The notes: a model not told the origin generated them from the letters alone. Positions 8,068 to 51,101 are shown, counted from the stretch's first letter. The stretch: DNA of 64,000 nt from Betaproteobacteria bacterium (GCA_016713305.1 JADJPK010000007.1:197829-261828); one strand, 5' to 3'. Numbers and translations are program-made.

Positions 8068-8210
8068 GATGTGAGGGTGCCGCAGGCAGTTCGGGGAAAC
8101 GCCGATTTTAGCCTGCGGCGCGCGATTCACCTAGGGAAGCCGTGAGTCATGCGCATGCCGCGACTCAGGCACTGCGGGTGGAAGATGCGAAGTTCCGTGC
8201 CGCCGGGTTC

Positions 8211-14512: not shown

Positions 14513-14681
14513 GGGAAGCGGTCTCGAAAGTGCGTGAAACTCGAAAGGGGCGGGTACTGGAACGGCCGGCGCGCTGCTCTGCAGAGTCTCGTATTGCCCC
14601 GGACCAAGCGAAATGGATTCCAGCCCGGGAATTGCGGGCCGCTCTGGCACAATCCGGCTGTCCACCGTCCCCCGGTCCTCC

Positions 14682-21270: not shown

Positions 21271-21529
21271 ACCGGGCCGCGCCCACGGGGCGCGGGTCCG
21301 GGCCTCGTCGGTCGTTCCGTTCCCGATTGTCCCCCGGCAGAAATGCCGAGGGTTTCGCTGCGTGCCGAGATGGTGCGTCCGCGAGCCTTCCTCTGCGGGC
21401 CGCCGGTCGTCCCCTCAAGCAACGCGGCGGCCGACCGGAGTTCATGGACGCGTTTCGGGCCTGACCTTCTCATTGCTTTCGCCATGGATTTCCGGCCGGA
21501 ATGTGAGGAGTCCGCCGTTCTGCGCCGTC

Positions 21530-21556
21530 TCAAGTTCATTTCCCTGTTTCCGTTAA
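21530..21556 (+). promoter_or_regulatory. Candidate sigma-28 (FliA) promoter TCAA-N15-TCCGTTAA
   Basis: Compared with the enteric consensus TAAA-N15-GCCGATAA: exact 15-nt spacer and 6/8 match in the -10 element. It ends 81 nt upstream of ATG 21637. Confidence 0.4.
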
Positions 21557-21636
21557 GAGACTCGCACGACCGCGAGAACACCCCCGGATGCGCCGGGGCG
21601 GTTCGTCGTGCGAACGCCACAGAACAAACTGGATAC

Positions 21637-22833
21637 ATGAACTCGACGAACCATTCGGTACCGCGGAGGCCTCGGCCGATACTCGTAGGGACGGCGTGCG
21701 TGGGGGCGGCCCTCACGGCAGCGTGGTTTCTGCTCAATTTCAGTCCCTTCGCGGCGGTGATCGTCGCGGCGGCCGGCACTGCCGCACCCTGGGTGTGGCA
21801 CGCGTTCCGAACGCCGTTGGATGCCCATTCGTCGCGTTCCGAGGAGCATCGGGACTCCGGCAACGTCCCGCTCGGCGATGCGCTTGCCAGGATGGGGACG
21901 GCCACGACACGTCTGCTCGAAGGGTCCGATGACGAGTTGCGCAGGATCGACGGGCTGGTGTCGGATGCCATCCCGGACCTCATCAAGAGCTTCAGCGACA
22001 TCACGGCCCAGGCCAAGCGCCAGCAGGAACTCACCCTGGCGGCGGCCAACAGCGACGAGATGCGCGCGCGGTTCCACGGATTCGTTGCAGAGGCTTCCAG
22101 CACGCTCCAGCAGTACGTCGACCGGCTGGTGGAAGGCAGCCGCTCGGGCATGGAACTGGTCGAGCAGATGGAAAACATCGAGAGCCGGGTGAAGGATGTC
22201 ACGGGCTTCCTGGACGAGATCGACTCCATCGCCAAGCAGACGAATCTTCTCGCGCTCAACGCGGCCATCGAGGCCGCCCGCGCGGGCGAGGCAGGGCGCG
22301 GATTCGCCGTGGTCGCCGACGAAGTGAGGACGCTCTCCGGCCGCACCGCGACCTTCAGCCGGCAGATCCTGGATCAGATGAAGGGCATCGAGGTGGAGAT
22401 CCAGCGTGCCGACGAACGCATCAACGCCATGGCGTCGCAGGACATGGTGTCTGCACTCGGCGCCAAGTCCAATGTCGAGACGGCGCTGAACGAGCTGGGC
22501 GACGCCAACATGGCGATGAACGACTCGGCCGCGGAAGTCTCCCGCATCGCCGGCGAACTGGAGCACACGGTCAACGCCGCGGTCACGAACCTTCAGTTCC
22601 AGGATCTCACCACCCAGCTGATCGGCCACGCCCGTCACCAGAACGAGGCGATCCGCGAACTGCTGGCGCACATCACGCAGGTCGGCGGCGCTCTGGCCGA
22701 CGACAGCTTTGCTTCCCAGGCGGGTTCCCTGCTCGCCGAATTCGATCAGCGGCTCACAAGAGCGCAGGCGGCCGCCGAGCGCACTCCGGTACGGCAGCAA
22801 GGCATGGATACCGGGGCCGTGGAACTGTTTTGA
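21637..22833 (+). CDS. Membrane-anchored MCP-signalling-domain protein without periplasmic sensor or recognisable HAMP
   Basis: Lies inside ORF 21343..22833. Start at ATG 21637 (MNSTNHS..). Two closely spaced TM helices ([19 protein letters not shown] / [17 protein letters not shown]). Tip motif [40 protein letters not shown]. Located directly upstream of cheY-cheA. Confidence 0.85.
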
Positions 22834-22862: not shown

Positions 22863-23228
22863 ATGTCAAAGACGATTCTCGCCGTGGACGACTCTCCGTC
22901 GATCCGCAATATGGTCGCTTTCACGCTCAAGAGCGCGGGCTACGACGTAGTGGAGGCGGTCGACGGCCAGGATGGTCTCGACAAGGCCAAGTCCAAGCAG
23001 GTGAACCTCGTGCTCACCGACCAGAACATGCCCCGCATGGATGGACTCACCCTGGTGAAGAATCTGCGCGCCATGCCCCAGTACAAGTCGGCACCCATCC
23101 TCATTCTCACCACGGAATCGTCGGATGACATGAAGGCGAAGGGCCGTGCCGCGGGTGCGACGGGCTGGCTGGTGAAGCCCTTCGATCCGCCCCGGCTGCT
23201 GGAGGTCGTCAAGAAGGTCATCGGCTGA
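22863..23228 (+). CDS. cheY: Chemotaxis response regulator CheY
   Basis: 121-aa stand-alone receiver domain: DD (AVDDS), phospho-acceptor D in LVLTDQNMPRMDG, T (ILTTES), K (LVKPF). Confidence 0.93.
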   Translation: MSKTILAVDDSPSIRNMVAFTLKSAGYDVVEAVDGQDGLDKAKSKQVNLVLTDQNMPRMDGLTLVKNLRAMPQYKSAPILILTTESSDDMKAKGRAAGATGWLVKPFDPPRLLEVVKKVIG

Positions 23229-23247: not shown

Positions 23248-25500
23248 ATGAGCTTCGACATGGGGCAGTTCACGCAGGTGTTCTTCGACGAGGCCAAGGA
23301 GCACATCGCGACCATCGAGGAGGTCCTTCTCCGGCTCGACCTCGTCGAACCGGGTCTGGAAGATCTCAACGCGATCTTCCGCGCGGCGCACTCCATCAAG
23401 GGCGGGGCCGGCACGTTCGGGTTTGCCGACATGGCGGATTTCACCCACGTCGCGGAGACGCTCCTCGACAGGCTGCGCAAGCAGGAGCTGAAGCTGACCG
23501 CCGCCATGGTGGATGCGCTGCTCGAGTCGAACGATGTGATCAAGTCCATGCTGGAGGCGCACCAGAACGGGGGTGAGGCCGACGGTGCGATCGAGCAGGA
23601 AGTGCGAGGGCGCCTGGAAGCGCTGTCGTCCGGGGAAGCACCGAGCGCCGAGCCAGTACGGTCTTCGGGCGCCGTCGCCCGGCCGCGCGAAGCACGCCGT
23701 TTCGTGATCCGGTTTCCCCACGCCAACGTGAGCTCCGATCAGGCGCTCGCCAATCTCCTCGCCGAGCTGAGGGCCCTGGGCACTCTGCATGTGGTTGAAC
23801 AGCCCGCGCCCGGGCGTACTGAACCGGATGCACGCTGGGAACTGGTCCTCGACACCACTGCGGAGCGTGCCGAACTGGTGGATCTGTTCGATTTCGTCCT
23901 GTCGCCCTCGCGGCTGGAACTGGACGAAGTGGAAGCAGGCGCGGATATCCCCGGTGTGGCGCAGGCGGGTGATGAGGGCTTCGGCTTCTTCGAGGAAGCG
24001 GCAGGCGCTCCGCCGAAGGAAGAAGGTTTCGGCTTCTTCGACGATGCCGCCGGCGCACCCGTCCAGGAGGCCGGTTTCGGCTTCTTCGACAATGCACCGG
24101 GCACCGCGTCGCAGGCCGGGGATTCCGCGGAGCGAAACCAGCCTTTCGGTTTCTTCGACGGTGCGCCGGGCGAGCCGGGCACGTCGACGCAAGCGGAACC
24201 GGCGTCTTCGAACGCGGCCACTCCCGCGCGCCGGGCCACCGATGCCTCGGGCAAGTCCGACGCACCGGCGGGTCGACGCGCGACGGACAAGGCGGCCGCA
24301 GCGGCCGCCAGTGGCGACACCTCGATCCGCGTGAGCGTGGAAAAGGTCGACCAGCTCATCAATCTGGTGGGCGAGCTGGTGATCACCCAATCGATGCTCG
24401 CCCAGGCCGTGATGCGTGCCGACCTGGCGGTGGACGACACGCTCGTGAATGGCATCGCACAGCTGGAGCGCAACTCCCGCGATCTGCAGGAGGCGGTGAT
24501 GTCCATCCGCATGCTCCCGATCGCCTTCGTGTTCAGCCGCTTTCCGCGGCTGGTGCGCGACATCGCGGGCAAGCTCGGCAAGAACGTCGATCTCAAGCTG
24601 GTAGGCGAGCAGACGGAACTGGACAAGGGCGTGATCGAGAAGATCGCGGACCCCCTGACCCATCTGGTGCGCAACAGCCTGGACCACGGGCTGGAGAGCG
24701 CAGCCGACCGCGAGGCCGCCGGCAAGCCGGCCAAGGGGACCATCACGCTGCGGGCCTTCCATCAGGGCGGCAACATCGTCATCGAAGTGGCCGACGACGG
24801 CAGGGGGCTCGACCGGGAGAAGATTCTCGCCAAGGCCCGGTCGCGCGGCATGCCGGTGGACGATTCGATGAGCGATGCCGAGGTTTTCGGGCTCATCTTC
24901 GAGGCGGGCTTTTCCACGGCCGAACAGGTCACGGACATCTCCGGCCGCGGTGTCGGCATGGACGTCGTGCGCCGGAACATCATGGCACTCGGCGGACGTG
25001 TCGACATCGCGAGCCAGCTGGGCAAGGGCTGCACGGTGTCGATCCGGCTGCCGCTCACGCTGGCCATTCTCGATGGCATCTCGGTGGCCGTGGGAGATTC
25101 GCTGTACATCGTGCCGCTGGGATTCATCGTGGAGTCCCTGCAGCCGCAACAGACCGACATCCGGACCATCGCGGGCTCCGGACTCGTCATGCAGGTAAGG
25201 GGCGATTACCTCCCTGTCGTGAGGCTGCACGACGAGATGGGTGTCACGCCGAAGATCCGGGAATTCCACCGCGGCATCACTGTCATCATTGAATCCGACG
25301 GGGCAAGAGCAGCGATGTTCGTCGACGAACTGGTGGGGCAGCACCAGGTGGTCATCAAGAGTCTGGAGAGCAACTACCGCAAGGTGCCGGGGATCTCCGC
25401 CGCCACGATCATGGGAGACGGCAGGGTCGCGATGATCCTGGATGTCGCTCACATCGTGCGCAAGGCCACTTCGAAGAAGGAGTATCAGGAAGCCGCTTGA
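23248..25500 (+). CDS. cheA: Chemotaxis histidine kinase CheA
   Basis: 750 aa. Hpt/P1 ([16 protein letters not shown]), a P2-like segment, an acidic GFGFF repeat linker, P3 dimerisation domain, HATPase ([10 protein letters not shown]-boxes) and a CheW-like P5 domain. Confidence 0.95.
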
Positions 25501-25603: not shown

Positions 25604-27995
25604 ATGAAAGCACTGAGTATCAAAGTGCGGTTTGCAGTGGCAGGGCTGGTCATGCTTGCGGGCATGAGCGCGATCGGGGTGCTGGGCTTGCAGGGCATGT
25701 TCAGCGCAAAGGAAGGATTGCGGACGGTCTACGAGGACCGGGTGGTTCCCCTGAAACAGCTGAAGCATGTCGCGGATGCCTACGCCGTCAGCGTGATCGA
25801 CGCCGTGAACAAGGCCAACGCCGGTCTTGCCAGTGCCGAGGAAACCCTCAAGGCTGTCGATACCGCCCAGACCGACATCAAGCGGGAATGGGGACAGTAC
25901 GCTGCGACGTTCATGACTCCCGACGAGAAGAAGCTGGCCGGGGAAGTGAACGCGACCATGGCGGTGGCCGATGCCTCGGTGCTTGAACTGGAGAAGTTCC
26001 TCCAAGGCAAGACCGGATCGCTCAAGGGAGCGCTCGGTGCCTTCGATGGTCCGCTCTATGCCACGGTCGATCCGGTAGGCGGAAAGATCAGTGACCTGGT
26101 GGAACTGCAACTGCGGGTCGCACAGGAGAATTACAGCGCGGCTGTAGCCGACTACGGCCACAAGCGCACGGTCGTGATCGCGATCGGTGGGGTGGTGGCG
26201 GTCCTGGCGGTCGTCATCGGATTCTTCCTGTACCGGAACATCGTACCGCCCATTGTGCGGCTGGCCGGTCAGATGCGCGAGATCACGGCTGGGAACACCG
26301 AACTGGAGGTGGACAGCGACCGCCGGGATGAGCTCGGTGAGGTCGTGAGCGCCTTCCGGGATCTGTTCGGCAAGGTGCGCAGCGATCTCGCGGAAGCGCA
26401 GCAGCGTGCGACGGTGAACGAACGCATTCGCCAGGCACTGGACAGCGCCAGCACCAACGTGATGGTGGCCGACACGGACGGCAAGATCGTGTTCATGAAC
26501 AAGTCCGTCACGGAGATGCTCGGCCGCAACGAAGCGGAGCTCAGGACGCAACTGCCCGGGTTCAGCGTGAACGCAGCCCTGGGCGCCAACTTCGATGCGT
26601 TCCATCGGAATCCTTCCCACCAGCGCAACCTGCTCGCCGCGCTGCAGACGACGCACCGCACGCAGATCAAGGTGGGACCGCTCACCTTCGCGCTTACCGC
26701 CAATCCCATCGTGGATGGCGAAGGCAGGCGCATCGGAACGGTCGTGGAGTGGAACGACCGGACCATGGAAGTACGGGTCGAAGAAGAGATCGGTCGCGTC
26801 GTGTCGGCGGCAGCATCCGGTGACTATTCGCAGCGGGTTCCCGAAGACGGAAAGAGCGGTTTCTTCCTGCAGATGGCGCAGGGACTCAACCGGATCGTGG
26901 GTGTCTCGGAAAGCGGCATCGGCGAGGTGGGCCGGGTGTCGAGAGCCGTTGCCTCCGGCGATCTCACGCAGAAGGTCACCGGAGACTTCGACGGGCAGTT
27001 CGCGGAGCTGCAGGCGGATTCCAACGCGACGAACGAGCGTCTGCGGGAGGTGATTGGTCAGATCCGGGAGTCTGTGGAGTCGATCACGACGGCGTCGAAG
27101 GAGATAGCGGCTGGGAACACGGACCTGTCTGGGCGGACGGAGGAGCAGGCGTCGAGTCTGGAGGAGACGGCGAGCTCGATGGAGGAGTTGACGTCGACGG
27201 TGAAGCAGAACGCGGAGAACGCGCGTCAGGCGAACCAGTTGGCGATCGGTGCCTCGGACGTTGCGGTGCGTGGTGGGGATGTGGTGAGGGAAGTGGTGCA
27301 GACGATGGGAGGGATCAGCGAGAGCAGCAAGAAGATTGCGGACATCATCTCGGTGATCGACGGGATTGCGTTCCAGACGAACATTCTGGCGCTGAACGCG
27401 GCGGTGGAAGCGGCGAGGGCAGGGGAACAGGGACGAGGTTTGCGGTGGTGGCGACGGAGGTGAGGAATCTGGCGCAGAGGAGTGCGGGGGCGGCGAAGGA
27501 GATCAGGGAGCTGATCTCGGACTCGGTGGGGAAGGTGGAGTCGGGAGCCGGCTGGTGGACGAGGCGGGGAGGACGATGGAAGAGATCGTGGTGTCGGTGA
27601 AGAGGGTGACGGACATCATGGCGGAGATCACGGCGGCGTCGGTGGAGCAGAGTGCGGGGATCGAGCAGGTGAACCAGGCGATCACGCAGATGGACGAGGT
27701 GACGCAGCAGAATGCGGCGCTGGTGGAGCAGGCGGCGGCGGCGGCGGAGAGTCTGGAGGAACAGGCGCAGATGCTGTCGCAGGCGGTGTCGGTGTTCAAG
27801 CTGGGACAGGAGGCGGAGGGGTGGGACGGGAAGGCGGAGCGGCGCGGGCCGGACCGTGCGAAGAACGTGGCGCGGCTGCCGAAAGCGGAAGGAGCGAAAG
27901 GGGCGAAGCCGGCGGCCAAGCCGAAGTCGCTGGGTGCTCCGGCGGCGAAGGTGGTGGGTGGAGATGCGGCGACCGACGAGTGGCAAGAGTTCTGA
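25604..27995 (+). CDS. MCP 'A': 4-helix-bundle (TarH-like) periplasmic sensor, HAMP, PAS, MA domain, C-terminal EWQEF; frame-disrupted as assembled (2 shifts)
   Basis: Start ATG 25604 ([29 protein letters not shown]), inside ORF 25442..27463. The protein continues through a short middle frame into ORF 27555..27995. Compared with paralog copies, single Gs are missing at 27437-27438 (GGG->GG) and 27543-27545 (GGGG->GGG). Confidence 0.88.
27035..27995 (+). repeat. MCP signalling-domain DNA cassette, copy A (long form including linker, EWQEF and stop)
   Basis: Near-identical at the DNA level to 33096..34057. The central part also matches 30235..30974 and 35333..36025. Confidence 0.9.
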
Positions 27996-28045
27996 TGCCC
28001 AGGGCGGAGCACACCCTGTAAACCTGCTGCAACCGCCCGACCCGC

Positions 28046-28068
28046 GATGCCGGACACTGTCCGGCATC
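28046..28068 (+). terminator. Hairpin after MCP A (possible weak terminator)
   Basis: GATGCCGGA-cactg-TCCGGCATC is a perfect 9-bp stem. The following T tract is poor (GCCGTTTCC). Confidence 0.3.
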
Positions 28069-28240
28069 GCCGTTTCCGGAGCCGGGAAGTCCGGTACCGG
28101 ACTTCCGGCGCATGTCGGGCGGGGGCGGCCTGCCCCCGCAATCCGGGCCCTTCTCGCGTGTCGTGCATTCCCTGCAAAGGGCGACGATCCGACTTCCATC
28201 CGCCCGGCTGCATGGCCGGTTCTGACGTAGCACAAAGCCC

Positions 28241-28267
28241 TCAAGTCCGGTCTCCAGCATCCGTGAA
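28241..28267 (+). promoter_or_regulatory. Candidate sigma-28 promoter TCAA-N15-TCCGTGAA
   Basis: Exact 15-nt spacer and 5/8 match in the -10 element. The same TCAAG/TCCGT variant occurs at 21530. The -10 overlaps ATG 28267, which favours the downstream TTG 28336 start for MCP B. Confidence 0.35.
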
Positions 28268-28335
28268 TGGTCAAGTACGAACGTGGGGCGCAGGGTCATC
28301 CCGTTCGTCAAGACGCAAACTACAAGGAATGCAAA

Positions 28336-31149
28336 TTGAAGTTGTTCCAGAAACTGAGCAATGCAGGTGTCGGGTTCAAGCTGACGGGCGTGGCCGTCAT
28401 CGCCGTGGGCGTGGTCATGGGATCGCTCGCGTGGCTGATCGGGAATTCGGCGCGCGATGCCATGGACGAGGGGGCGCTCGAGCGCCTCAAGATCGAACTC
28501 AACATGACGGTCGATCTGCTCTCCAACTATGGCGAGCGCCTGGACACCGAGGCAGAGCACCTCATGTCGGTGATCAGATCCCAATATTCCGGCAGCTTCT
28601 CGGCGGACTTGCGTCATCCAGCGGCCGTGGGCGGCCGGTCCGTCCCCGCATTGGTCAATGGCGGGCGGGTGCTGAACGGAGAACACCGCAATCTGGATAC
28701 GCTCCGCGACACGACCCACGCCGTCGCAACGCTCTTCGTTCACGACGGCCAGGACTTCGTGCGGGTGGCGACCTCCCTGCGCGACAAGGAAGGCAACCGG
28801 GTTTCCGGAACGCCGCTGGACCGCAACAGCCCTGCCTACGCCGCGCTGTCGGCCGGGCAGTCCTTCCGTGGCCATGCCGAACTGTTCGGCCGCGAGTACG
28901 TCACCCGCTACGAGCCGCTCAAGTCGGCTGACGGCCGCATTGCAGGCGCCTTGTTCGTGGGACTCGACATCAGTGACGAACTGGCCGCGGTGAAGAAGCG
29001 CATCCGCAGCGTGAAGGTCGGCGAGACCGGCTACATCTATGCGCTGGATGCATCGCCCGGACCGCACTACGGTTTTGCGACGATCCATCCGGCCAAGGAA
29101 GGCCTGAGCCTGCTTGCGGCCAAGGATGCGAATGGCCACGAATTCATCAAGGAGATCGTGGAGAAGCGCGAAGGCGTCATCCACTATCCCTGGTTCAATC
29201 CGGAACTGGGCGACAAGGCGCCGCGCGACAAGATCGTCGTGTACGGGCCCGTGAAGTCGTGGAACTGGGTGGTCGGGGTGGGCAGCTACTCGGACGAGTT
29301 CTCCCGGAGCGCCTCGATGCTTCGCAACCGTGTCTTCATGGTGGCGGGCGCCGGACTCGTCCTGCTGGGCCTGGCACTGTTCTTCGCCATCCGGCAGGTG
29401 ATCGTCAAGCCTCTGGGCAAGGCCGTGGCGGCGGCGGAAGAGATCGCCGGCGGCAATCTCAATCACGAGGTGGAAAGCGACAGCCGAGACGAAGTGGGGT
29501 CCCTGCTGACGGCATTGAACGACATGCGGGTGAAGCTCCTCGAGCGCATCGAAGCCGATCAGCGCGTTTCACGAGAGGCCCTCAGGGTGAAGGTCGCGCT
29601 CGATGGTTCCGCCACGCCGGTCCGCATCGCGGACAACGAGGGCACGCTGCTGTACATCAACGAGGCGATGCGCCGGACGCTCAAGCAGATCGAGCCCGAG
29701 ATGCGCCGGAAGCACCCCGATTTCTCCGCCGAGACACTCGTGGGCAAGAGCGTCGGCGTGTTCTACGACGATCCGAAGGCGGCGTTGGCCCGCCTGGCCA
29801 GTCTCAGCGGTCTCGTCCGTACGGACATGGTCATCGGCGGCCGGGATTTCGAGATCACCACGACACCGATCATGGACGCGAACGGAGTGCGTCTGGGCAG
29901 CGTCGGAGAATGGTCGGACCGCACGGACCAGCGACGTGCGGAACGGGAGATCCAGAGTTCGGTGCAGGCCGCTGCAGGGGGAGACTTCTCCCGCCTGGTA
30001 CCTCTCGACGACAAACAGGGCTTCCTGCGGCAGATGGCCGAGGGGCTCAACCAGATCATGCAGTCCTGCGATACCAATCTTGCGGGCGTCGCGACGGTGC
30101 TCGACGGCCTCGCCGGGGGCGATCTCACCAAGCGTGTCGATGGCGCGTTCGAGGGACGCTTCGCCAGTCTCCAGGAGGACACCAACGTCTCGATGGATCG
30201 GCTCGGCGAAGTCGTGAGCCAGATCCGCGATTCGGTGGAGTCGATCACGACGGCGTCGAAGGAGATAGCGGCTGGGAACACGGACCTGTCTGGGCGGACG
30301 GAGGAGCAGGCGTCGAGTCTGGAGGAGACGGCGAGTTCGATGGAGGAGCTGACGTCGACGGTGAAGCAGAACGCGGACAACGCGCGTCAGGCGAACCAGT
30401 TGGTGGTGGGGGGCGTCGGAAGTGGCGCAGCGTGGTGGGGATGTGGTGAGGAAGTGGTGCAGACGATGGGAGGGATCAGCGAGAGCAGCAAGAAGATTGC
30501 GGACATCATCTCGGTGATCGACGGGATTGCGTTCCAGACGAACATTCTGGCGCTGAACGCGGCGGTGGAAGCGGCGAGGGCAGGGGAACAGGGACGAGGG
30601 TTTGCGGTGGTGGCGACGGAGGTGAGGAATCTGGCGCAGAGGGAGTGCAGGGGCGGCGAAGGAGATCAAGGAGCTGATCTCGGACTCGGTGGGGAAGGTG
30701 GAATCAGGGAGCCGGCTGGTGGACGAGGCGGGGAGGCGATGGAAGAGATCGTGGTGTCGGTGAAGAGGGTGACGGACATCATGGCGGAGATCACGGCGGC
30801 GTCGGTGGAGCAGAGTGCGGGGATCGAGCAGGTGAACCAGGCGATCACGCAGATGGACGAGGTGACGCAGCAGAATGCGGCGCTGGTGGAGCAGGCGGCG
30901 GCGGCGGCGGAGAGTCTGGAGGAACAGGCGCAGATGCTGTCGCAGGCGGTGTCGGTGTTCAAGCTGGGACAGGAAGGGGAAGGTCGGGACGGGAGCGCGC
31001 AACGGCGTGGGCCGGAGCGTTCCACGAATGTCGCGAGGTTGCCCAAAGCCGAAAAGGTCAAACCCGCCAGACCCGCCGCACTCAGCGCGCCGAAATCCCG
31101 GGTGGTCAATGCGAGGTCGGGATCGGACGAGGAATGGGAAGAGTTCTGA
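28336..31149 (+). CDS. MCP 'B': Cache_3-Cache_2-like periplasmic sensor, HAMP, PAS, MA domain, C-terminal EWEEF; contains two compensated frameshift pairs
   Basis: ORF 28267..31149 (960 aa). Likely TTG start at 28336 ([27 protein letters not shown]), with AAGGA upstream. Cache motifs: [52 protein letters not shown]. Two segments, 30413-30450 and 30643-30737, translate to nonsense relative to the paralogs. Confidence 0.88.
30235..30974 (+). repeat. MCP signalling-domain DNA cassette, copy B
   Basis: Identity starts at GTGGAGTCGATCACGACGGCG and ends at AAGCTGGGACAGGA. Confidence 0.9.
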
Positions 31150-31247
31150 TGCTCCAACCGTGCGGCAGTCGGAGGAGAAGCATATTCCGGTGACGAGCGA
31201 TCCTCCGCGGCAGTCACGCCAGGCACGATGAACGCGCATTGCCCCGA

Positions 31248-31285
31248 ACGGCGGCCTCGAACAGAGAGCCGCCGTCTTTCATTCT
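31248..31285 (+). terminator. Rho-independent terminator candidate after MCP B
   Basis: ACGGCGGC-(12-nt loop)-GCCGCCGT followed by the T-rich CTTTCATTCT. Confidence 0.45.
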
Positions 31286-31368
31286 GTCGCGCGGGAACGC
31301 GAACCGGTGGCAGACCGATGGAAAGGCCGCCTGCGGCAGTGGGTATGAGAAATTTCTCAGTACCTGCA

Positions 31369-31395
31369 TAAAGTCGCAGAGGTACCGGCCGTAAT
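31369..31395 (+). promoter_or_regulatory. Candidate sigma-28 promoter TAAAGT-N-GCCGTAAT
   Basis: TAAA-N15-GCCGTAAT. The -35 region TAAAGT matches the consensus TAAAGTTT at 6/8, and the -10 matches 5/8. It ends 81 nt upstream of ATG 31476. Confidence 0.45.
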
Positions 31396-31475
31396 GCCGC
31401 GAAGAAGGGCCGAACTGTCTTCACGAATCGGGTTGCGGCCCCGATGCTGTCCCCTCTTCGTACAAAGGATTTCGC

Positions 31476-34057
31476 ATGACCCGCCTCTTGAACAGGCTTT
31501 CCCTCCGAGCCAAATTCGTGGTGATCGGCGTCGTGGCCTCCGCCGCCATGCTCACCGCACTGGGCTTCCTGCTCAGCACCCTGCAGGAGTCCATCGCGTT
31601 CTCGGCCAAGGAAAGGCTCGGTATCGAATACCACAAGCCCCTGCGGCATCTCCTCGAGAAGATCGCCGTGGCCCAGGGTGACCCCGCGGCCCGGGAGGCA
31701 GTCAAGCCTGCCATCGCAGCCGTGGATGCGGTCCACGAAAGACTCGGGGGCACGCTGGACATCGGCGATCGGTGGAAGAACGTCAAGACGCAATGGGACA
31801 GCGTTGTGTCCGCGGACGCATCTGCCGATCTCAAGCCGGTGGCCACGGCAGTCGCAGCGCTCATGGACCATGTCGGCAACACGTCGAACCTCATTCTCGA
31901 TCCGGACCTGGACTCGTTCTACCTGATGGATATCGCGGTGGCGCGCATACCGCACGCGGTGGAGAAGCTCCTCTTGCTGCGCGACGGCGGTGGTGAAGTC
32001 GTGGCGGCCCGCAAGATGACGGGTGAACAACGGACGCTGCTTTCGACCACGGCAGGTGTGGCGGTCGGCTTTCGCGAAGCGATCCAGGCGTCCCTCGACA
32101 CGGCGGTCGGAAACAACGGAACGCTTGCGGGGCTGCGCGCGAAGCATGACGACCTTGCCCGGGCGACCGACACGTTCTTCGGTCTGGTTCAGAAGGATCT
32201 GCTGAGCGCGGAACGTCTGGAGCTGGCACCGGCACGCTATTCGGAAGCTGCCCATGGGGCGATCGCCACGAACTTCGCCTTCTACGACGCGGTGGCCCCG
32301 GGATTGGACGGCCTGCTCGAGGCCCGGGTCGCGAAGCTTTCGTGGAAGAGAAACCTGCTTGCGGGAATCGTGCTCGCGCTGATGGCGTTCGCCGGATTCC
32401 TCGCGCGCGTCGTTCTCAACGATATCCTGAGAAATGCCGCAAAGGCGGCCGATGCTGCCGACCGGTTGTCCCGTGGAGACATGGAGTTCGACGTTGCGGC
32501 CAATACCCGAGACGAACTGGGCGCGATGCTGAACTCCATGGCCGCGATGAAGCGGACGGTTCAGCGTTACGTCGATGGACAGATCGAACTGGGCCGTCAG
32601 CACGAGGCAGGGATGATCGCCTACCGGCTCGATCCTCAGGAATTCGAGGGTGCGTACCGTGACATGGCAACCCGCACCAACGCAGCGGTCCAGACGCACA
32701 TCGAAGTGACCCGGCAACTGGTCGCCGTTCTGGACAAGTACGCCCACGGTGACTTCCATGTCGACATGACTCCCCTTCCCGGCGAACTGGGCGCCGTCTC
32801 CGAAGCTGCGGCACGCGCCAAGCGCAACATGGTCGACATCAGCGGGGAGATTCAGACGCTGGCGGACGCGGCGGGGCGCGGCGAGTTCCAGGTGCGCGGT
32901 GATACCGGGCGCTATCACGGTACCTATCGCCAGATGGTCGAGGGGATGAACCGCTTGATGGAGACGGCCGATCGCGGTGTGACGGAGGTCGGGCGCGCGC
33001 TGCAGCAGCTCGCCCGGGCGGATCTGTCCCATTCGGTGTCCGGGGATTTCCAGGGCCAGTTCCGGCAGCTTCAAGACGATGCGAACCAGTCGACGGAGCG
33101 TCTGCGGGAGGTGATTGGTCAGATCCGGGAGTCTGTGGAGTCGATCACGACGGCGTCGAAGGAGATAGCGGCTGGGAACACGGACCTGTCTGGGCGGACG
33201 GAGGAGCAGGCGTCGAGTCTGGAGGAGACGGCGAGCTCGATGGAGGAGCTGACGTCGACGGTGAAGCAGAACGCGGACAACGCGCGTCAGGCGAATCAGC
33301 TGGTGGTGGGGGCGTCGGAAGTGGCGCAGCGGGGTGGGGATGTGGTGAGGGAAGTGGTGCAGACGATGGGGGGATCAGCGAGAGCAGCAAGAAGATCGCG
33401 GACATCATCGGGGTGATCGACGGGATTGCGTTCCAGACGAACATCCTGGCGCTGAACGCGGCGGTGGAAGCGGCGCGTGCAGGCGAGCAGGGACGAGGGT
33501 TTGCGGTGGTGGCGACGGAGGTGAGGAATCTGGCGCAGAGGAGTGCAGGGGCGGCGAAGGAGATCAAGGAGCTGATCTCGGACTCGGTGGGGAAGGTGGA
33601 GTCGGGGAGCCGGCTGGTGGACGAGGCGGGGAGGACGATGGAAGAGATCGTGGTGTCGGTGAAGAGGGTGACGGACATCATGGCGGAGATCACGGCGGCG
33701 TCGGTGGAGCAGAGTGCGGGGATCGAGCAGGTGAACCAGGCGATCACGCAGATGGACGAGGTGACGCAGCAGAATGCGGCGCTGGTGGAGCAGGCGGCGG
33801 CGGCGGCGGAGAGTCTGGAGGAACAGGCGCAGATGCTGTCGCAGGCGGTGTCGGTGTTCAAGCTGGGACAGGAGGCGGAGGGGTGGGACGGGAAGGCGGA
33901 GCGGCGCGGGCCGGACCGTGCGAAGAACGTGGCGCGGCTGCCGAAGGCGGAAGGAGCGAAAGGGGCGAAGCCGGCGGCCAAGCCGAAGTCGCTGGGTGCT
34001 CCGGCGGCGAAGGTGGTGGGTGGAGATGCGGCGACCGACGAGTGGCAAGAGTTCTGA
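31476..34057 (+). CDS. MCP 'D': unclassified helical periplasmic sensor, HAMP region(s), MA domain, C-terminal EWQEF; frame-disrupted as assembled (1 shift)
   Basis: ORF 31476..33416 ([33 protein letters not shown]..) joins ORF 33413..34057. One base is lost at 33368-33373 (ATGGGAGGGATC in the paralogs versus ATGGGGGGATC here). Confidence 0.88.
33096..34057 (+). repeat. MCP signalling-domain DNA cassette, copy D (long form)
   Basis: Identity with copy A starts at GAGCGTCTGCGGGAGGTGATTGG and runs to the stop codon. The copies diverge within a few nt after TGA. Confidence 0.9.
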
Positions 34058-34185
34058 TCGCATCGGCGGTGGTCTTGTTCCCGTTCGGTGACAGGGAGCA
34101 CCGTATCGATCGTCGACCGGAGAGTCCCGCCCTGCCCGGAAATCCGGCGCAGGCGCTGCGACGCCCGGCCCCACTATCTCCAGGG

Positions 34186-34212
34186 TAAATATTCCCCGCC
34201 ACCTGCCGACAA
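34186..34212 (+). promoter_or_regulatory. Candidate sigma-28 promoter TAAA-N15-GCCGACAA
   Basis: 7/8 match to GCCGATAA with an exact 15-nt spacer. It ends 38 nt upstream of ATG 34250. Confidence 0.5.
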
Positions 34213-34249
34213 GGGGTTGGCAAGACCGATAAACCGTCAGGGGAATGCA

Positions 34250-36121
34250 ATGGGCAGTGGCAGTGGCAGCAGCGGTGGAAGGAGCGGTGGCATGGGCAAC
34301 AGCAGTGATGGCGGTAACGGCCGTGGCGGCGGCTGGTTCGGTCGGTCAAGGAAGAAAACCATCGAAGCGGGAGGCCGGCGCTTCGATGCAGACGAAGTGT
34401 GGGAGATGTGGGCGCGCCTCGAGGCGCTGAGTCGATCCCAGGCCGTCATCGAATTCACGCCGGAAGGCGAAGTCCTGAAGGCGAACTCCAACTTTCTCTC
34501 GGTCATGGGCTATCCGCTCGAGGACATTCAGGGGCGGCACCATCGCATGTTCGTCGAGCCGTCCTATGCGCAGAGCCCGGACTACGCGCAGTTCTGGGAA
34601 GGCCTGCGCAAGGGCGAGTTCAGGGCGGGACTCTTCAAGCGTATCGGCAGCGGCGACAGGGAAGTCTGGATCCAGGCGAGCTACAACCCGGTTCTGGACT
34701 CGAGCGGCCGGGTCCTCAAGATCGTCAAGTACACCACCGATGTCACGGCGGAGCAGGAGCGCACTGCACACGCGGCGGCCAAACTGCAGGCGATCGACCG
34801 GTCGCAAGGCGTCATCGAGTTCGATCTCGACGGCCGTATCGTCTCGGCGAACCGCAATTTTCTCGATGCACTGGGCTACTCCCCGGGGGAGATCGCTGGC
34901 CAGCATCACGCCATGTTCGTGGAGCCGGCCGAGCGGCAGAGCGATGACTACCGGAGGTTCTGGGAAAAGCTGCGTCGTGGCGAGTTCGACTCGGGCAAGT
35001 ACAAGCGCGTGGGCAAGGGCGGCCGCACGGTGTGGATTCAGGCGACCTACAACCCGGTTCTCGATGCGTCGGGCAGGCCGGTGAAGGTCGTGAAGTTCGC
35101 CCAGATCATCACGGAGCAGGTGGAGGCGGCCCAGGCCACCGAGCGCGCAGTGGCGGACGTCATGCGGATCGTCTCGGCGGCTGCGAACGATGACCTCAGC
35201 CTGCGCATCGATTGCCAAGGCAAGTCGGGAGAGTTCGAGACCCTGTGCGCGGGAGTCAACCGACTCATGGATACGATGTCCGATGTCGTCGGCCGGATGC
35301 GGGATGCCTCGGACGTCATCACCACCAGCGCCAAGGAGATAGCGGCTGGGAACACGGACCTGTCTGGTCGGACGGAGGAGCAGGCGTCGAGTCTGGAGGA
35401 GACGGCGAGTTCGATGGAGGAGCTGACGTCGACGGTGAAGCAGAACGCGGACAACGCGCGTCAGGCGAACCAGTTGGTGGTGGGGGCGTCGGAAGTGGCG
35501 CAGCGTGGTGGGGATGTGGTGAGGGAAGTGGTGCAGACGATGGGAGGGATCAGCGAGAGCAGCAAGAAGATTGCGGACATCATCTCGGTGATCGACGGGA
35601 TTGCATTCCAGACGAACATTCTGGCGCTGAACGCGGCGGTGGAGGCGGCGAGGGCTGGGGAGCAGGGACGGGGATTTGCGGTGGTGGCGACGGAGGTGAG
35701 GAACCTGGCGCAGAGGAGTGCGGGGGCGGCGAAGGAGATCAAGGAACTGATCTCGGACTCGGTGGGGAAGGTGGAGTCGGGGAGCCGGCTGGTGGACGAG
35801 GCGGGGAGGACGATGGAAGAGATCGTGGTGTCGGTGAAGAGGGTGACGGACATCATGGCGGAGATCACGGCGGCGTCGGTGGAGCAGAGTGCGGGGATCG
35901 AGCAGGTGAACCAGGCGATCACGCAGATGGACGAGGTGACGCAGCAGAATGCGGCGCTGGTGGAGCAGGCGGCGGCGGCGGCGGAGAGTCTGGAGGAACA
36001 GGCGCAGATGCTGTCGCAGGCGGTGGTGGCGTTCAAGCTGGAACAGGAGAGCCAGGACACGGGTCCCCTGCAGCGCCGCCGTGCGGCGTCGACGCACCGC
36101 ATCGCGGTCCAGGCGGCTTGA
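34250..36121 (+). CDS. MCP 'E': soluble receptor with Gly/Ser-rich N-terminus, two PAS domains and MA domain, no pentapeptide
   Basis: Lies inside ORF 34088..36121. Start at ATG 34250 ([28 protein letters not shown]). No TM segment visible. The PAS-like unit is duplicated ([45 protein letters not shown], then [45 protein letters not shown]). Confidence 0.9.
35333..36025 (+). repeat. MCP signalling-domain DNA cassette, copy E
   Basis: Identity starts at AAGGAGATAGCGGCTGGGAACACGG and ends at ..CTGTCGCAGGCGGTG. Confidence 0.9.
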
Positions 36122-36205
36122 TGTCTCTTCCTCGGAGGCGCCGCTGCCGGCAGCCCATGCTGCCCGGAGACGACCCGCCTTTCGGGGCAGCGCAGGTGAG
36201 GAGTG

Positions 36206-36232
36206 TCAAGTTGGCAGCGGCGAAGCCGCTAA
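36206..36232 (+). promoter_or_regulatory. Candidate sigma-28 promoter TCAAGTTG-N11-GCCGCTAA
   Basis: TCAA-N15-GCCGCTAA, a 7/8 match to GCCGATAA. It ends 82 nt upstream of cheW ATG 36314. Confidence 0.5.
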
Positions 36233-36313
36233 CTCCCCGGAGAGCCGGGTGATGGCCGCTGCCAAGGCATCGGCGAAGGACGCCACCGTTCAGATCGCGG
36301 GAAAGGGAACGCA

Positions 36314-36823
36314 ATGAAAACAGATACGAAAGACAGTCTTGCCAAGGGATCGATCGAGGCAGCCCAGGCGGCCGGAGAATTCCTGACGTTCCGGTTGGGG
36401 GAAGAGGAGTACGGGATCGAGATCCTGAAGGTGCAGGAGATCCGGGGTTACGATGCCGTGACGACCATTGCCAACGCACCCTCGTTCATCAAGGGCGTCA
36501 TCAACCTGCGGGGGGTCATCGTGCCCATCGTGGACCTTCGCATCAAATTCGGGGTCGGCCAGGCCGACTACAACCAGTTCACCGTCGTCATCGTGCTCAA
36601 CGTGGGCAGCCGCGTCGTCGGCATCGTGGTCGACAGCGTCTCGGACGTGATGACCCTCACGTCGGAGCAGATCAAACCGGCGCCGGAATTCTCGTCCAGC
36701 TTCGACACGCGCTATCTCACCGGCATCGGCGCGATCGACGATCGCATGCTGATCCTCGTGGACATCGAACGGCTGATGCTGTCCTCGGACATGGCGCTGG
36801 TCGACGAAGCGGCCGCGGCCTAG
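36314..36823 (+). CDS. cheW: Chemotaxis coupling protein CheW
   Basis: 169 aa. [25 protein letters not shown] and [15 protein letters not shown] are classic CheW motifs. Confidence 0.93.
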
Positions 36824-37741
36824 ATGGCCACCGTCCAGTCCGGAACGCGCTCAGGCACCGTCGATCCGAAACAGCTGGCCGCGCAGTTCGCGGCCTCGCG
36901 TGACGCGTCGCGCGAGTTCGAATACACCCCCGCGGACTTCGAGGCCGTGCGCGCACTCATCTACAAGCGTGCCGGCATCTCGCTGTCGCCGGTGAAGGCG
37001 GACATGGTCTACAGCCGTCTCGCCCGGCGGCTGCGTGCGCGGGGCATGAAGCGCTTCTCCGAGTACATCGACTATCTCCGCGGCGGCGGCGACGACGAGG
37101 AGTGGGAGGCGTTCACGAACGCGCTCACCACGAACCTCACATCGTTCTTTCGCGAGGAGCATCACTTCCCGATCCTCGCGAATCATCTGCAGAGCCTGCG
37201 TGGACGCAATCCGTCCATCTGGTGCTGCGCATCGTCCACGGGCGAGGAACCCTACTCGCTCGCGATGACGGCGGTGGAGGCGTTCGGCAGCTTCAACATT
37301 CCGGTCAGCATTCTCGCTTCGGACCTGGATACGAACGTGCTGGCCAAGGCGCGGGCGGGTGTCTATCCGGCCGAGCGCATCGAACGGTTGTCGGCAGAAC
37401 GGGTGAAGCGCTTCTTCATGCGCGGTACGGGTGCCCAGGAAGGTCTCGTCAAGGTCCGCCCGGAACTGGCCAAGCTGGTGTCGTTCAAGCAGATCAATCT
37501 GCTGTCCAGCCCGCTCCCCGTGCAAGGACAATTCGATGCGGTGTTCTGCCGGAACGTGATGATCTACTTCGACAAGGCGACGCAGGCTTCGATCCTGAGA
37601 CGCTTCGTCCCTCACATGAATCCCGATGCGCTCCTGTTCGTGGGCCACTCCGAGAGCCTCTTCCACGTGTCGGACGTCTTTCATCTGCGAGGCAAGACCG
37701 TCTACGACCTGGTGAAAGGGGGAGGGGCGAATGTCGTTTGA
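36824..37741 (+). CDS. cheR: Chemotaxis protein methyltransferase CheR
   Basis: 305 aa. TTNLTSFFREEHHF, SAM-binding IWCCASSTGEEPYSLAM, FCRNVMIYFD. The start directly abuts the cheW stop (TAGATG). Confidence 0.93.
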   Translation: MATVQSGTRSGTVDPKQLAAQFAASRDASREFEYTPADFEAVRALIYKRAGISLSPVKADMVYSRLARRLRARGMKRFSEYIDYLRGGGDDEEWEAFTNALTTNLTSFFREEHHFPILANHLQSLRGRNPSIWCCASSTGEEPYSLAMTAVEAFGSFNIPVSILASDLDTNVLAKARAGVYPAERIERLSAERVKRFFMRGTGAQEGLVKVRPELAKLVSFKQINLLSSPLPVQGQFDAVFCRNVMIYFDKATQASILRRFVPHMNPDALLFVGHSESLFHVSDVFHLRGKTVYDLVKGGGANVV

Positions 37742-38348
37742 TGCAGCGCTCGAATCCCTCGCGACCAATCTCTACTTCGACCGGACGTTCGACCGCCATG
37801 CAGTCAAGGTCCTGCCGGGCGAGTTCTACGTCACCGATCGCGACATGGTGCTCGTGACGACGCTGGGCTCCTGCGTGGCCGCGTGCATCCGCGATGCCGA
37901 TCTGGGCATCGGGGGCATCAATCACTTCATGCTGCCCGACACGTCGACGGTCGAGGCGGGCGCGCCAGCTTCGACATCGGCCCGCTACGGGACCTATGCC
38001 ATGGAACTGCTGATCAACGAACTGGTGAAGCTCGGGGCGCGGCGCAAGCACCTGGTCGCGAAAGTGTTCGGCGGAGGCAATGTGCTGGGCAACATGACCG
38101 TCACGAACGTGGGCCAGCGCAACGCGTCCTTCGTGCTGGGGTATCTGTCGATGGAAGGCATCCCCGTGCTGGCCAAGGACCTGCTGGACGAGCATCCACG
38201 CAAGGTCTATTTCTTTCCGCGCACCGGCAAGGTGCTGATCAAGAAACTGCGCAGCGTGCGCAACGAGACCCTGGTGGAGCGCGAGACCGATTACGCGAAG
38301 CGTCTCAAGACGACCCGGGTGTCGGGAGACGTGGAGTTGTTCGCATGA
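37731..38348 (+). CDS. cheD: Chemoreceptor glutamine deamidase CheD
   Basis: 205 aa. [11 protein letters not shown] with the catalytic Cys context, [18 protein letters not shown]. Overlaps cheR by 11 nt. Confidence 0.9.
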
Positions 38349-39451
38349 CGCTGGCCATGCATGCAGCACCGGCGGCAGACCGGAAGATCAGGGTCGTGGT
38401 GGTGGACGATTCGGCCCTGATCCGCTCGGTGCTCAAGAAGCTGCTCGAGACGGCGCCCGACATCGAAGTGGTCGGGGTGGCGTCCGACCCCATCGTGGCA
38501 CGCGAAGTCATTCGCAGCACCGAGCCCGATGTGATCACGCTGGACGTCGAGATGCCGCGCATGGACGGGCTGGAATTCCTGTCGCGTCTCATGCGCCTCA
38601 AGCCGACGCCCGTGGTGATGGTGTCTTCGCTGACCGCGCGCGGCTCCGAAGTGACCTTGCGGGCGCTCGAGCTCGGCGCCGTCGACTTCGTGGCAAAGCC
38701 CAAGTTCGACATCCAGCACGGATTGCAGGAGACCGCGCGCGAGATCGTGGAGAAGGTGAGGGCGGCCTCCCACGCGCGGGTGCGCAAATCGGTGCCGGTG
38801 GAGTCCGGTCCCGCCAATTCCGCGGATGTCGTCCTGCCGGCCACGCTGTCACGCGTCGCGGCCACGGAGAAGGTCATCATCGTTGGCGCGAGCACGGGCG
38901 GAACCGAAGCCATCAAGGCGTTCCTGACCCGGATGCCGGCCGACTGCCCCGGGATTCTTATCGCCCAGCACATGCCCGAGGCTTTCACCAAGTCCTTCGC
39001 CCAGCGCCTGGATGGCCTGTGCCGGATCAAGGTTCACGAAGCCCAGGGTGGCGAGCGGGTACTCCCGGGCCACGCCTTCATTGCACCGGGACACTCGCAT
39101 CTGCTGCTCGCGCGGAGCGGCGCCAACTATGTGACCGAACTGTCCCAGGCCCCTCCCGTCAACCGGCATCGGCCGTCGGTGGACGTACTGTTCCGGTCGG
39201 CCGCGAACGTCGCGGGGCGCAATGCCATGGGCGTGATCCTGACGGGCATGGGCAAGGATGGTGCGGCGGGCATGCTGGAAATGAAGCAGGGGGGAGCCTA
39301 TACGTTTGCGCAGGACGAGGCCTCCTGCGTGGTCTTCGGGATGCCCCGCGAGGCGATCGCGCTGGGCGGAGTCGACGAAGTCGTCCCCCTCGACGACATT
39401 GCGTCCCGGGTGCTGCTGCGCCTGGGCGCGGAGCGCACGATCAGGGTTTAG
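38345..39451 (+). CDS. cheB: Chemotaxis response regulator protein-glutamate methylesterase CheB
   Basis: Lies inside ORF 37883..39451. ATG 38345 overlaps the cheD stop (ATGA). Receiver domain ([21 protein letters not shown]) plus esterase domain ([19 protein letters not shown]). Confidence 0.93.
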
Positions 39452-39495
39452 CGGCCACCTTCGGGGGCCATTGCAGTCGTTTCAGGAGAGCAGTC

Positions 39496-39801
39496 ATGCA
39501 GACGCAGGTTCAGAAATCAGGCGACAGGGCGACCATCCGGTTGAACGGACGGTTCGATTTCAACGCGCACCGCCATTTCCGCGAGGCCTACGAGTCCCAT
39601 CTGTCGGCCAAGGAGGTGAAGGAGTTCGAGATCGACATGGCCCAGGTCGACTATGTGGACAGTTCCGCCCTGGGCATGCTCCTCATGCTCAAGGAAAAGG
39701 CGCATGCCAGCGCCAAGTCGGTGGTTCTCGCGAACTGCAAGGGCACGGTCAAGCAGGTGCTGGACATCGCCAATTTCGGCAAGCTCTTCACCATGCGGTA
39801 A
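39496..39801 (+). CDS. STAS-domain protein (anti-sigma-factor-antagonist-like)
   Basis: Lies inside ORF 39019..39801. ATG 39496 follows AGGAGAG. 101 aa. YVDSSALGMLLML matches the SpoIIAA-type DSSGLG phospho-serine loop. Located 44 nt after cheB on the same strand. Confidence 0.8.
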   Translation: MQTQVQKSGDRATIRLNGRFDFNAHRHFREAYESHLSAKEVKEFEIDMAQVDYVDSSALGMLLMLKEKAHASAKSVVLANCKGTVKQVLDIANFGKLFTMR

Positions 39802-39887
39802 GTTTGTCCGGAGTCCGGAATCCTGTCCCTGACGGCGGCGCAGGCCTTGGAAGTGCCGCCGGTTTCGGCTAGACTCCGCTCTCTTTT

Positions 39888-39964
39888 AGGCGCGTAGCTC
39901 AGCTGGTTAGAGCACCACCTTGACATGGTGGGGGTCGTTGGTTCGAGTCCAATCGCGCCTACCA
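39888..39964 (+). tRNA. tRNA-Val (anticodon GAC)
   Basis: Cloverleaf folded by hand. Acceptor AGGCGCG/CGCGCCT, D-arm GCTC..GAGC, anticodon arm CCACC-TTGACAT-GGTGG, T-arm GTTGG-TTCGAGT-CCAAT, encoded CCA. Confidence 0.9.
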
Positions 39965-51032: not shown

Positions 51033-51101
51033 GATCAATCCTGTCAAATGGGGAATGGCGACGAGGCCGCCGCCACCCCGTTGCACGAAATCCTGGTCGG
51101 A

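Follow-up and report, generated by a model that had tools for sequence, protein, structure and literature searches.

In Escherichia coli, the tandem receptor genes tar and tap lie inside the che operon, and only some of the receptors carry the pentapeptide xWxxF, the motif by which CheR and CheB are tethered; the receptor paralogs of this organism are not known to be homogenised at the DNA level. A different situation is found in the 64,000-nt stretch of DNA from Betaproteobacteria bacterium (GCA_016713305.1 JADJPK010000007.1:197829-261828) that was analysed here and that is referred to below as the window (65.5% G+C). Four co-oriented genes for methyl-accepting chemotaxis proteins (MCPs), mcpA, mcpB, mcpD and mcpE, are located between cheA and cheW and share a tract of 0.69-0.96 kb, hereafter the cassette, whose four copies (A, B, D and E) are 96-97% identical. 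The cassette encodes the same kinase-control module as Tsr and Tar of E. coli, aligning without gaps to Tsr residues 264-530. The locus is known here from assembled contig sequence, and gene identities are based on Pfam and gene calls.

Paralogs of a single genome that combine the same signalling domain with different sensors have been described in Campylobacter jejuni, where the group A receptors Tlp2, Tlp3 and Tlp4 have identical signalling domains and sensors that are ~30% identical (PMC9769880). Recombination among C. jejuni tlp genes and tlp-bounded rearrangements have also been reported (PMC6433261). Unlike the receptor genes of the window, the Campylobacter tlp genes are dispersed, belong to another receptor length class and another phylum, and have not been reported to show the G-only codon usage described below. 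Exchange of the RecA type keeps part of repeated genes alike in tufA/tufB and in rRNA operons, and the array would resemble them in this respect. In the tandem lpl cluster of Staphylococcus aureus, the unit of exchange consists of the 3' part of an open reading frame (ORF), the spacer and the 5' part of the next ORF (PMC2568036), a geometry similar to the succession of cassette tail, spacer and next sensor in the window. The tuf, rRNA and lpl repeats are, however, other gene families, while here homogenisation appears to be restricted to the output half of a signalling protein with two parts. In mammalian TLR1/TLR6, conversion limits the divergence of one part of the genes while other parts diverge (PMC2077338); this eukaryotic pair, with two copies and unrelated folds, offers an analogy only.

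The receptor genes and the extent of the cassette copies, as defined by pairwise alignment, are as follows.

25604-27995, + strand: mcpA, with 4HB_MCP, HAMP, PAS and HAMP_2 domains, the cassette and an EWQEF tail (Pfam; tail after conceptual repair)
28267-31149, + strand: mcpB, with Cache_3-Cache_2, HAMP, PAS and HAMP_2 domains, the cassette and an EWEEF tail (Pfam)
31476-34057, + strand: mcpD, with a helical sensor that has no Pfam match, HAMP, HAMP_N3 and HAMP_2 domains, the cassette and an EWQEF tail
~34250-36121, + strand: mcpE, a soluble dual-PAS receptor with the cassette and a short unique tail that lacks the pentapeptide
27035-27995, + strand: cassette copy A, in which 27035-27097 and 27813-27995 are shared with D only
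30235-30975, + strand: cassette copy B
33096-34057, + strand: cassette copy D
35333-36025, + strand: cassette copy E

The presence of the same DNA in four genes had been proposed in an earlier, model-generated reading of the sequence (the original prediction), and it is borne out by alignment. The 101-mer quoted in that proposal is identical at 27074, 30235 and 33135, and its last 77 nt recur at 35333 with 1 mismatch, with 0 matches expected in shuffled sequences. Pairwise identity amounts to 97.0% for A and B (over 739-741 nt), 97.3% for B and D, 96.7% for A and E (over 691-693 nt) and 97.1% for A and D (over 961-962 nt, 27035-27995 vs 33096-34057). The core common to all four copies corresponds to 27098-27812 in the coordinates of A; its 719 alignment columns are 96.1-97.2% identical between pairs and contain 39 substitution sites, and one run of 247 nt is free of substitutions in every copy (p<1e-5). 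In contrast, the three other MCP genes of the window, which are of different receptor classes, are ~36% identical to the cassette in amino acids and ~50% in nucleotides. Their dissimilar DNA was correctly noted in the original prediction, but at ~36% amino acid identity they make a weak control for the effect of protein conservation; the proper control is provided by orthologous cassettes, which are considered below.

The copies do not end at the same points. In the coordinates of A, copies A and D both cover 27035-27995, whereas B runs from 27074 to the equivalent of 27812 and E from 27098 to the equivalent of 27788. As had been stated, A and D stay alike (99.5%) through the linker, EWQEF and the stop codon, and identity falls to 46% in the intergenic DNA past the stop; the other two copies leave the repeat earlier, B at ~30975, with a tail that is homologous yet 65% identical, and E at 36026. 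Sequences flanking the cassettes are unalignable or ~46-65% identical. The assertion that everything upstream is unrelated holds in part: the input parts do differ, but A, B and D have a homologous, diverged juxta-cassette linker of 60 amino acids (53-65% amino acid identity), and in the adjoining 120 amino acids A and B share 41% identity.

The protein encoded by the cassette was compared with E. coli receptors using phmmer. Residues 8-274 of E match Tsr (6s1k, E=1e-97), and residues 2-267 of mcpE align gap-free to 3zx6. The cassette thus codes for the whole kinase-control module, with both methylation helices, the flexible bundle and the tip that binds CheA and CheW, and we take it to belong to the 36-heptad receptor class that Tsr defines. 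PF00015 (MCPsignal, the conserved tip) is matched by A, B and E, and by D only after frame repair, the match being missed in the truncated D ORF; in unrepaired mcpB it is split in two. In mcpE, whose start is uncertain (the ORF opens at 34088), two PAS_3 domains are accompanied by an MCPsignal match covering positions 4-172 of 172 (Pfam). Following the flexible linker, the C-terminal xWxxF motif reads EWQEF in A and D and, in the conceptually repaired gene, EWEEF in B; no pentapeptide is present in E, which ends in ...RIAVQAA. The receptors are encoded together with cheA, cheW, cheR and cheB, as judged by Pfam matches of the neighbouring genes.

Relatives with orthologs were available for B and for E, two pairs only. 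Contig L087, from an activated-carbon metagenome, has flanks 74-79% identical to the window and carries an ortholog of B directly before cheW (69% amino acid identity), with a sensor 74% identical in nucleotides and a cassette 82-85% identical to those of the window. Contig L011, from 'Betaproteobacteria bacterium Ga0077526', the closest genome found (CheW 84% identical, flanks 78-82%), carries an E-like dual-PAS gene before cheW, with a sensor 66-70% and a cassette 77-79% identical. The window cassettes are therefore closer to their paralogs (96-97%) than to their orthologs in L087 (82-85%) or L011 (77-79%). In addition, all four copies share derived synonymous states that are absent from the relatives, including AGG arginine codons and G at four-fold sites.

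Differences between the copies are clustered, most clearly in two patches.

27243-27267, + strand: A-private patch with genome-typical codons, resembling the relative (alignment with L087_B)
~33398-33485 (~87 nt), + strand: D-private patch across the receptor tip, with CGT/GGC/ATC codons as in relatives

Eight of the 12 A-private substitutions fall within 22 nt (p<5e-5), and seven of the 10 D-private ones within 87 nt (p=0.0015). Both patches carry codons of the relatives (GCC, GGC, CGT, ATC) and the peptide SDVAVRGG, and they look like remnants that escaped homogenisation. Clustered private patches and copy-specific boundaries point to repeated partial conversion tracts and not to one recent duplication. 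The original prediction of a mosaic is thus supported as far as the clustered, copy-private patches are concerned; conflicting phylogenetic partitions are not seen (there are 3 informative sites), and the 13-letter peptide that had been quoted for B reads across a frameshift.

We conclude that the cassettes are probably kept alike by interlocus gene conversion, i.e., by concerted evolution, to which we assign a probability of about 80%; it best explains the ortholog comparison, the derived codons, the boundaries and the patches, as had been proposed. We infer the recombination mechanism from features that can be read directly in the DNA, namely identity, boundaries, the excess of paralog over ortholog similarity, derived codons, patchiness and array variation. 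Non-reciprocal homologous recombination between the tandem direct repeats would keep the DNA of the module 96-100% alike, with tracts differing in extent from copy to copy, and unequal exchange between the same repeats would add or remove receptor genes. The functional benefit is likewise a deduction: each receptor would present the same surface to CheA, CheW, CheR and CheB, and the receptors can likely pack into one array.

Variation among the relatives agrees with this scheme. In both the window and L011 (X-E-cheW), E is the receptor next to cheW, whereas in L087 (X-B-cheW) it is B, and the contigs of both relatives (L087, 1-3503; L011, 1-2930) begin inside the cassette of a preceding MCP. 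It follows that array content varies and that short-read assemblies break in the repeat. The differing contents fit gain and loss of receptor genes by unequal exchange between repeats, which direct repeats had been predicted to allow. The E-like cassette of L011 (1990-2680), which comes from a short-read metagenome-assembled genome (MAG), lacks two stretches of ~67 and ~47 nt that are present in all other cassettes and may be a repeat misassembly or a degenerate copy. At E-private sites (35368-36030), contigs L001, L004/L120 and L006 carry either E or A/B/D alleles in differing combinations, and in L004 and L006 sequence of the A/B/D type reaches 5 nt further at the 3' edge; such variation fits segregating conversion tracts or short-read chimeras.

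High identity and the presence of only 3 informative sites would also be expected if a single module had recently been duplicated or pasted onto four existing sensors, with the differences arising as later mutations, and the pairwise recombination tests are too weak to speak against this. We nevertheless regard a single recent event as distinctly unlikely, since the boundaries differ by copy, the private patches of A and D are clustered and match codons of relatives as random new mutations would not, and L001, L004 and the window carry different alleles at E-private sites. Moreover, the orthologs of B and E have cassettes of their own in the relatives, so the fusions predate homogenisation. 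Purifying selection on the protein combined with codon bias, acting with no exchange between copies, could draw on the 82-90% amino acid identity of the module across genera and on the fact that some 38-mers are common to many metagenomes. This has next to no probability in our view: orthologous cassettes with 82-90% amino acid identity are only 70-87% identical in nucleotides, compared with 96-100% in the window, synonymous sites are nearly invariant among the copies, and identity stops abruptly at a different point in each gene. The claim that the identity goes beyond protein-level constraint is therefore upheld. Several observations weigh against gene conversion. Pairwise GENECONV-like tests on polymorphic sites were not significant, except for A-D with an uncorrected p=0.02, and each of the 3 phylogenetically informative sites favours a different grouping. 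Homogenisation is not universal, since two neighbouring cassette fragments of L087 are just 86% alike. Orthology could be compared for B and E only, and other data sets yielded no near-identical A, B or D. Finally, the array is known from assembled contigs, the source assembly contains indel errors ~25-fold enriched in the cassettes, and reads misassigned between copies could have inflated cassette identity.

The last points raise the question of whether the identity was made, or strongly exaggerated, by assembly and polishing, either through correction across copies or through one gene end being assembled several times. Poor consensus in the cassettes is indeed indicated by the indel enrichment (Poisson P ~1e-7), and the paired +1/-1 indels of B sit where the copies differ. 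Each of the four genes, however, has a sensor and a downstream junction of its own. CheW and CheY proteins identical to those of the window are present in 15-16 contigs from activated-sludge and related metagenomes, and k=31 contigs from several samples start exactly at 35996, 30 nt before E parts from the other copies, as expected of an assembler at a repeat edge. L004/L120 extends from the E sensor through the cassette to cheW, and L001 enters the cassette from the cheW side. The distinct sensors and downstream junctions, and the contigs that stop at the repeat edge or cross it, show that the four copies do not stem from a single gene assembled repeatedly. The E cassette is also recovered in independent short-read contigs, where it is 97.8-98.9% identical and has the same G-only composition, and finished isolate genomes show repeats of the same type. 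An assembly origin of the identity thus appears very unlikely.

The quality of the consensus in the cassettes is a separate matter. In the sequence as given, only mcpE has an intact frame, and seven 1-nt indels are present inside the cassettes of A, B and D.

27436/27437 (between GGACGA and GGTTTG), + strand: one G missing in A
27542/27543 (between GGAGTC and GGGAGC), + strand: one G missing in A
30408 and 30449, + strand: paired indels in B, an extra G at the first position and a G missing after the second, leaving 14 codons out of frame
30641 and 30736, + strand: paired indels in B, an extra G at the first position and an A missing after the second, leaving ~32 codons out of frame
33370/33371 (between GATGGG and GGGATC), + strand: one A missing in D, which breaks mcpD

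The frame of mcpA changes from 0 to 2 to 1, and the mcpB ORF stays open despite its two compensated out-of-frame stretches; conceptual reversion of the seven indels yields four full-length MCPs. Similar defects are found elsewhere in the window: an extra C near 40940 in thrS; a paired +1/-1 indel in pheT (44690-44765), with an in-frame stop at 44763-44765; one frame change each in recJ (~10330, - strand) and comEC, the latter missing one G at 17617; and phoX (51100-53000, - strand), which is split over at least 3 frames. Frame-breaking indels number 7 in the 2.84 kb of cassettes and at least 7 in the other 61 kb, which makes them ~25-fold denser in the cassettes. Homopolymer density was considered as a cause of this excess and rejected, as the cassettes show no enrichment in G/C runs of 3 nt or longer (ratio 0.85). 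No indel separates the window from same-species short-read contigs over 35996-39915.

The seven indels most likely reflect faults in the assembly consensus of repeated DNA and not biology, because the essential genes thrS and pheT carry like defects; the simplest reading is that error correction failed where reads map to several copies. Should the indels be real, A, B and D would be decaying or phase-variable receptors and only E would be functional. The strong enrichment in cassettes, the position of most indels within G runs and the frequent pseudogenisation of chemoreceptors in C. jejuni (PMC9769880) are in favour of this idea. Yet thrS and pheT show defects of the same type, including a paired +1/-1; comEC likewise lacks a G, while its counterpart in a 98%-identical strain (L161) is an intact gene of 785 residues; every indel is private to one copy amid otherwise identical DNA; and nonsense or radical substitutions are not found. 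The indels fall within or between G runs of only 2-6 nt, which is short for slippage switches, phase variation usually involving homopolymers of at least 7-8 nt. Real indels are thus unlikely. No same-species copies of A, B or D for checking were found among the genome and JGI metagenome contigs searched, from which the D sensor was absent; the best protein match of repaired B was 69% identical, and that of the cassette plus tail 83%. Independent contigs cover only E.

The cassettes also differ from the rest of the window in synonymous composition, an anomaly that had been missed along with the indels. In the cassette, 91% of four-fold sites are G and 0 of 123 are C, whereas G makes up 41% of such sites in the four sensors (n=1139) and 45% in eight other genes, with C at 42% in both. 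At two-fold C/T codons, C/(C+T) is 0.76 in the cassette vs 0.76-0.79 elsewhere. AGG accounts for 5-7 of 11-12 arginine codons in the cassette and ~7% elsewhere; on its coding strand, the cassette contains 46% G and 19% C. The composition is confined to the following segments.

27098-27995, 30259-30975, 33159-34057 and 35333-36025, + strand: segments with G-only composition

The switch in composition follows the repeat edges of each copy and is sharp at both ends of E. G enrichment runs through the tail shared by A and D only (G 0.76) and does not extend into the unique tails of B and E. Elsewhere in the window, no stretch of 150 codons has a like composition in any frame. In an independent contig of the same species, assembled from short reads, four-fold G is 0.92 and C is 0, the L087 cassette is intermediate (G 0.68, C 0.17), and Variovorax cassettes, whose protein is 82-84% identical, are ordinary (G 0.32-0.38, C 0.50-0.54). 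At shared four-fold sites, C in a relative and G in the window are paired at 13-37 positions, and the reverse occurs at 0.

Translational optimisation was rejected as a cause of the G-only codons, as ribosomal protein genes prefer C. A generic conversion-driven G bias was rejected as well, because, among the 33 loci that hold two or more cassettes, homogenisation and G content show no significant correlation (rho 0.19 and -0.13). The cassette mRNA is weakly folded (-254 vs -310±10 kcal/mol for genome-typical synonymous recodings, z=5.4); this is due to the imbalance of G and C and does not discriminate between causes. G-quadruplex motifs occur on the coding strand at the receptor tip in B (30578-30600) and E (35652-35673), would occur in A if it is repaired, and are absent from the ancestral-like patch of D; further motifs lie at the 3' edge of the shared core (27803-27830, 30966-30993 and 33865-33892). 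Nine of the 11 GCTGGTGG (E. coli Chi) octamers on the + strand of the window are inside cassettes.

One candidate cause is a strand-specific process linked to recombination and restricted, in this lineage, to DNA under concerted evolution; it could be a G/C-transversion-specific bias of conversion or repair, or error-prone repair synthesis. We put it forward tentatively and hold it to be doubtful. None of the papers searched describes a C-to-G conversion bias. Alternatively, selection may favour a non-template strand rich in G and poor in C, one that is prone to R-loops and G-quadruplexes, resists Rho-dependent termination and gives weakly folded mRNA; the G-rich strand itself could also promote exchange between copies. 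In more general terms, the composition may be due to a bias of mutation or repair that is specific to the lineage and tied to recombination, to selection acting on transcript or DNA, or to history.

In order to place the array among other bacteria, two sets of loci were used, 76 retrieved through CheW and 72 through a cassette 38-mer. Among them, 33 loci hold 2-9 tandem cassettes with a maximum within-locus identity of 79-99.9% over ~0.7-0.9 kb. They include the complete genomes of Variovorax sp. W6 and V. paradoxus NBRC 15149, as well as loci from Actimicrobium, Herminiimonas, Noviherbaspirillum and metagenomic betaproteobacteria. Identity reaches 99.7% over ~770 nt in complete Variovorax genomes, and at one V. 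paradoxus locus (L080) two adjacent genes with different upstream parts share 767 nt at 98.3%. The arrays of these four genera resemble that of the window in having 2-9 co-oriented MCP genes by cheW, with different upstream parts and shared cassettes of 0.7-0.9 kb that are 85-99.9% identical in nucleotides (among them the complete genomes L038, L057 and L080), and their cassette protein is 81-84% identical to that of the window; unlike in the window, their cassettes are of ordinary composition (four-fold G 0.32-0.50, C 0.43-0.54). Variovorax arrays also hold a second cheW that is 95-99% identical to the first (L057, 6056-6501 vs 10083-10529; L080, 10059-10476 vs 14174-14591), so homogenisation in Variovorax is not limited to receptor genes. 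None of the papers searched describes such betaproteobacterial arrays or gene conversion among their tandem MCP genes. Still, the array is ordinary for these bacteria and is not the undescribed system that the original prediction had seen in it, as the same pattern recurs in the 33 other betaproteobacterial loci and the C. jejuni Tlp2/3/4 receptors have been published (PMC9769880).

The array is embedded in a chemotaxis cluster on the + strand.

~21484-22833, + strand: MCP gene, 5' of cheY
22863-23228, + strand: cheY, response regulator that opens the core of the che cluster (Pfam Response_reg; exact protein in 15 metagenome contigs)
23248-25500, + strand: cheA, histidine kinase gene directly 5' of the receptor array (Pfam Hpt, H-kinase_dim, HATPase_c, CheW)
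36314-36823, + strand: cheW, directly 3' of the array (Pfam CheW; exact protein in 16 contigs)
36824-37741, + strand: cheR, adaptation enzyme for the shared module (Pfam)
37731-38348, + strand: cheD, adaptation enzyme for the shared module (Pfam)
38345-39451, + strand: cheB, adaptation enzyme for the shared module (Pfam)

The gene order mcp-cheY-cheA-[mcpA-mcpB-mcpD-mcpE]-cheW-cheR-cheD-cheB is that of a chemotaxis operon of an uncultured activated-sludge betaproteobacterium. The cheR, cheD and cheB genes are also called on contigs L002 and L003, which match the window gap-free. A STAS gene follows 3' of cheB, then tRNA-Val and thrS-infC-rpmI-rplT-pheST. Promoter and terminator scans of 22.5-40 kb gave results at or below shuffle expectation, and no Rfam RNA element was matched within the receptor array. 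An overlapping hidden gene in the cassettes was rejected, as antisense and +1 ORFs have no Pfam match and their openness is a by-product of third-position G. No site-specific recombinase or reverse transcriptase was found by the array, all genes of 18.9-48.6 kb being concerned with chemotaxis, stringent response or translation. A dedicated shuffling system (shufflon, invertase or diversity-generating retroelement) was rejected because neither enzyme is nearby and the repeats are direct and 0.7-1 kb long.

Two further observations concern other parts of the window. The prfB gene (6963-8126, - strand) contains at ~7989 the canonical programmed +1 frameshift site of RF2, GGAGG TAT CTT TGA C; this frameshift is natural, unlike the other frameshifts in the window. 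At tRNA-Val (39888-39964), similarity between the window and L001 (4480-5927) stops at the tRNA 3' end, where L001 has a phage-type integrase instead of thrS, which suggests an integrative element at this site in some strains.

Cassettes of this kind break short-read assemblies and draw consensus errors in long-read assemblies, and receptor counts as well as 'pseudogenes' in MAGs are therefore unreliable at these loci. The loss of four-fold C confined to a repeat is unusual and, if the link to recombination is true, would provide a rare handle on conversion-associated sequence drive in bacteria. For the bacteria themselves, the array is a natural example of a sensory repertoire enlarged by adding new sensor ends to one output module, which recombination would hold uniform so that all receptors remain compatible with one kinase, one adaptor and one set of adaptation enzymes.

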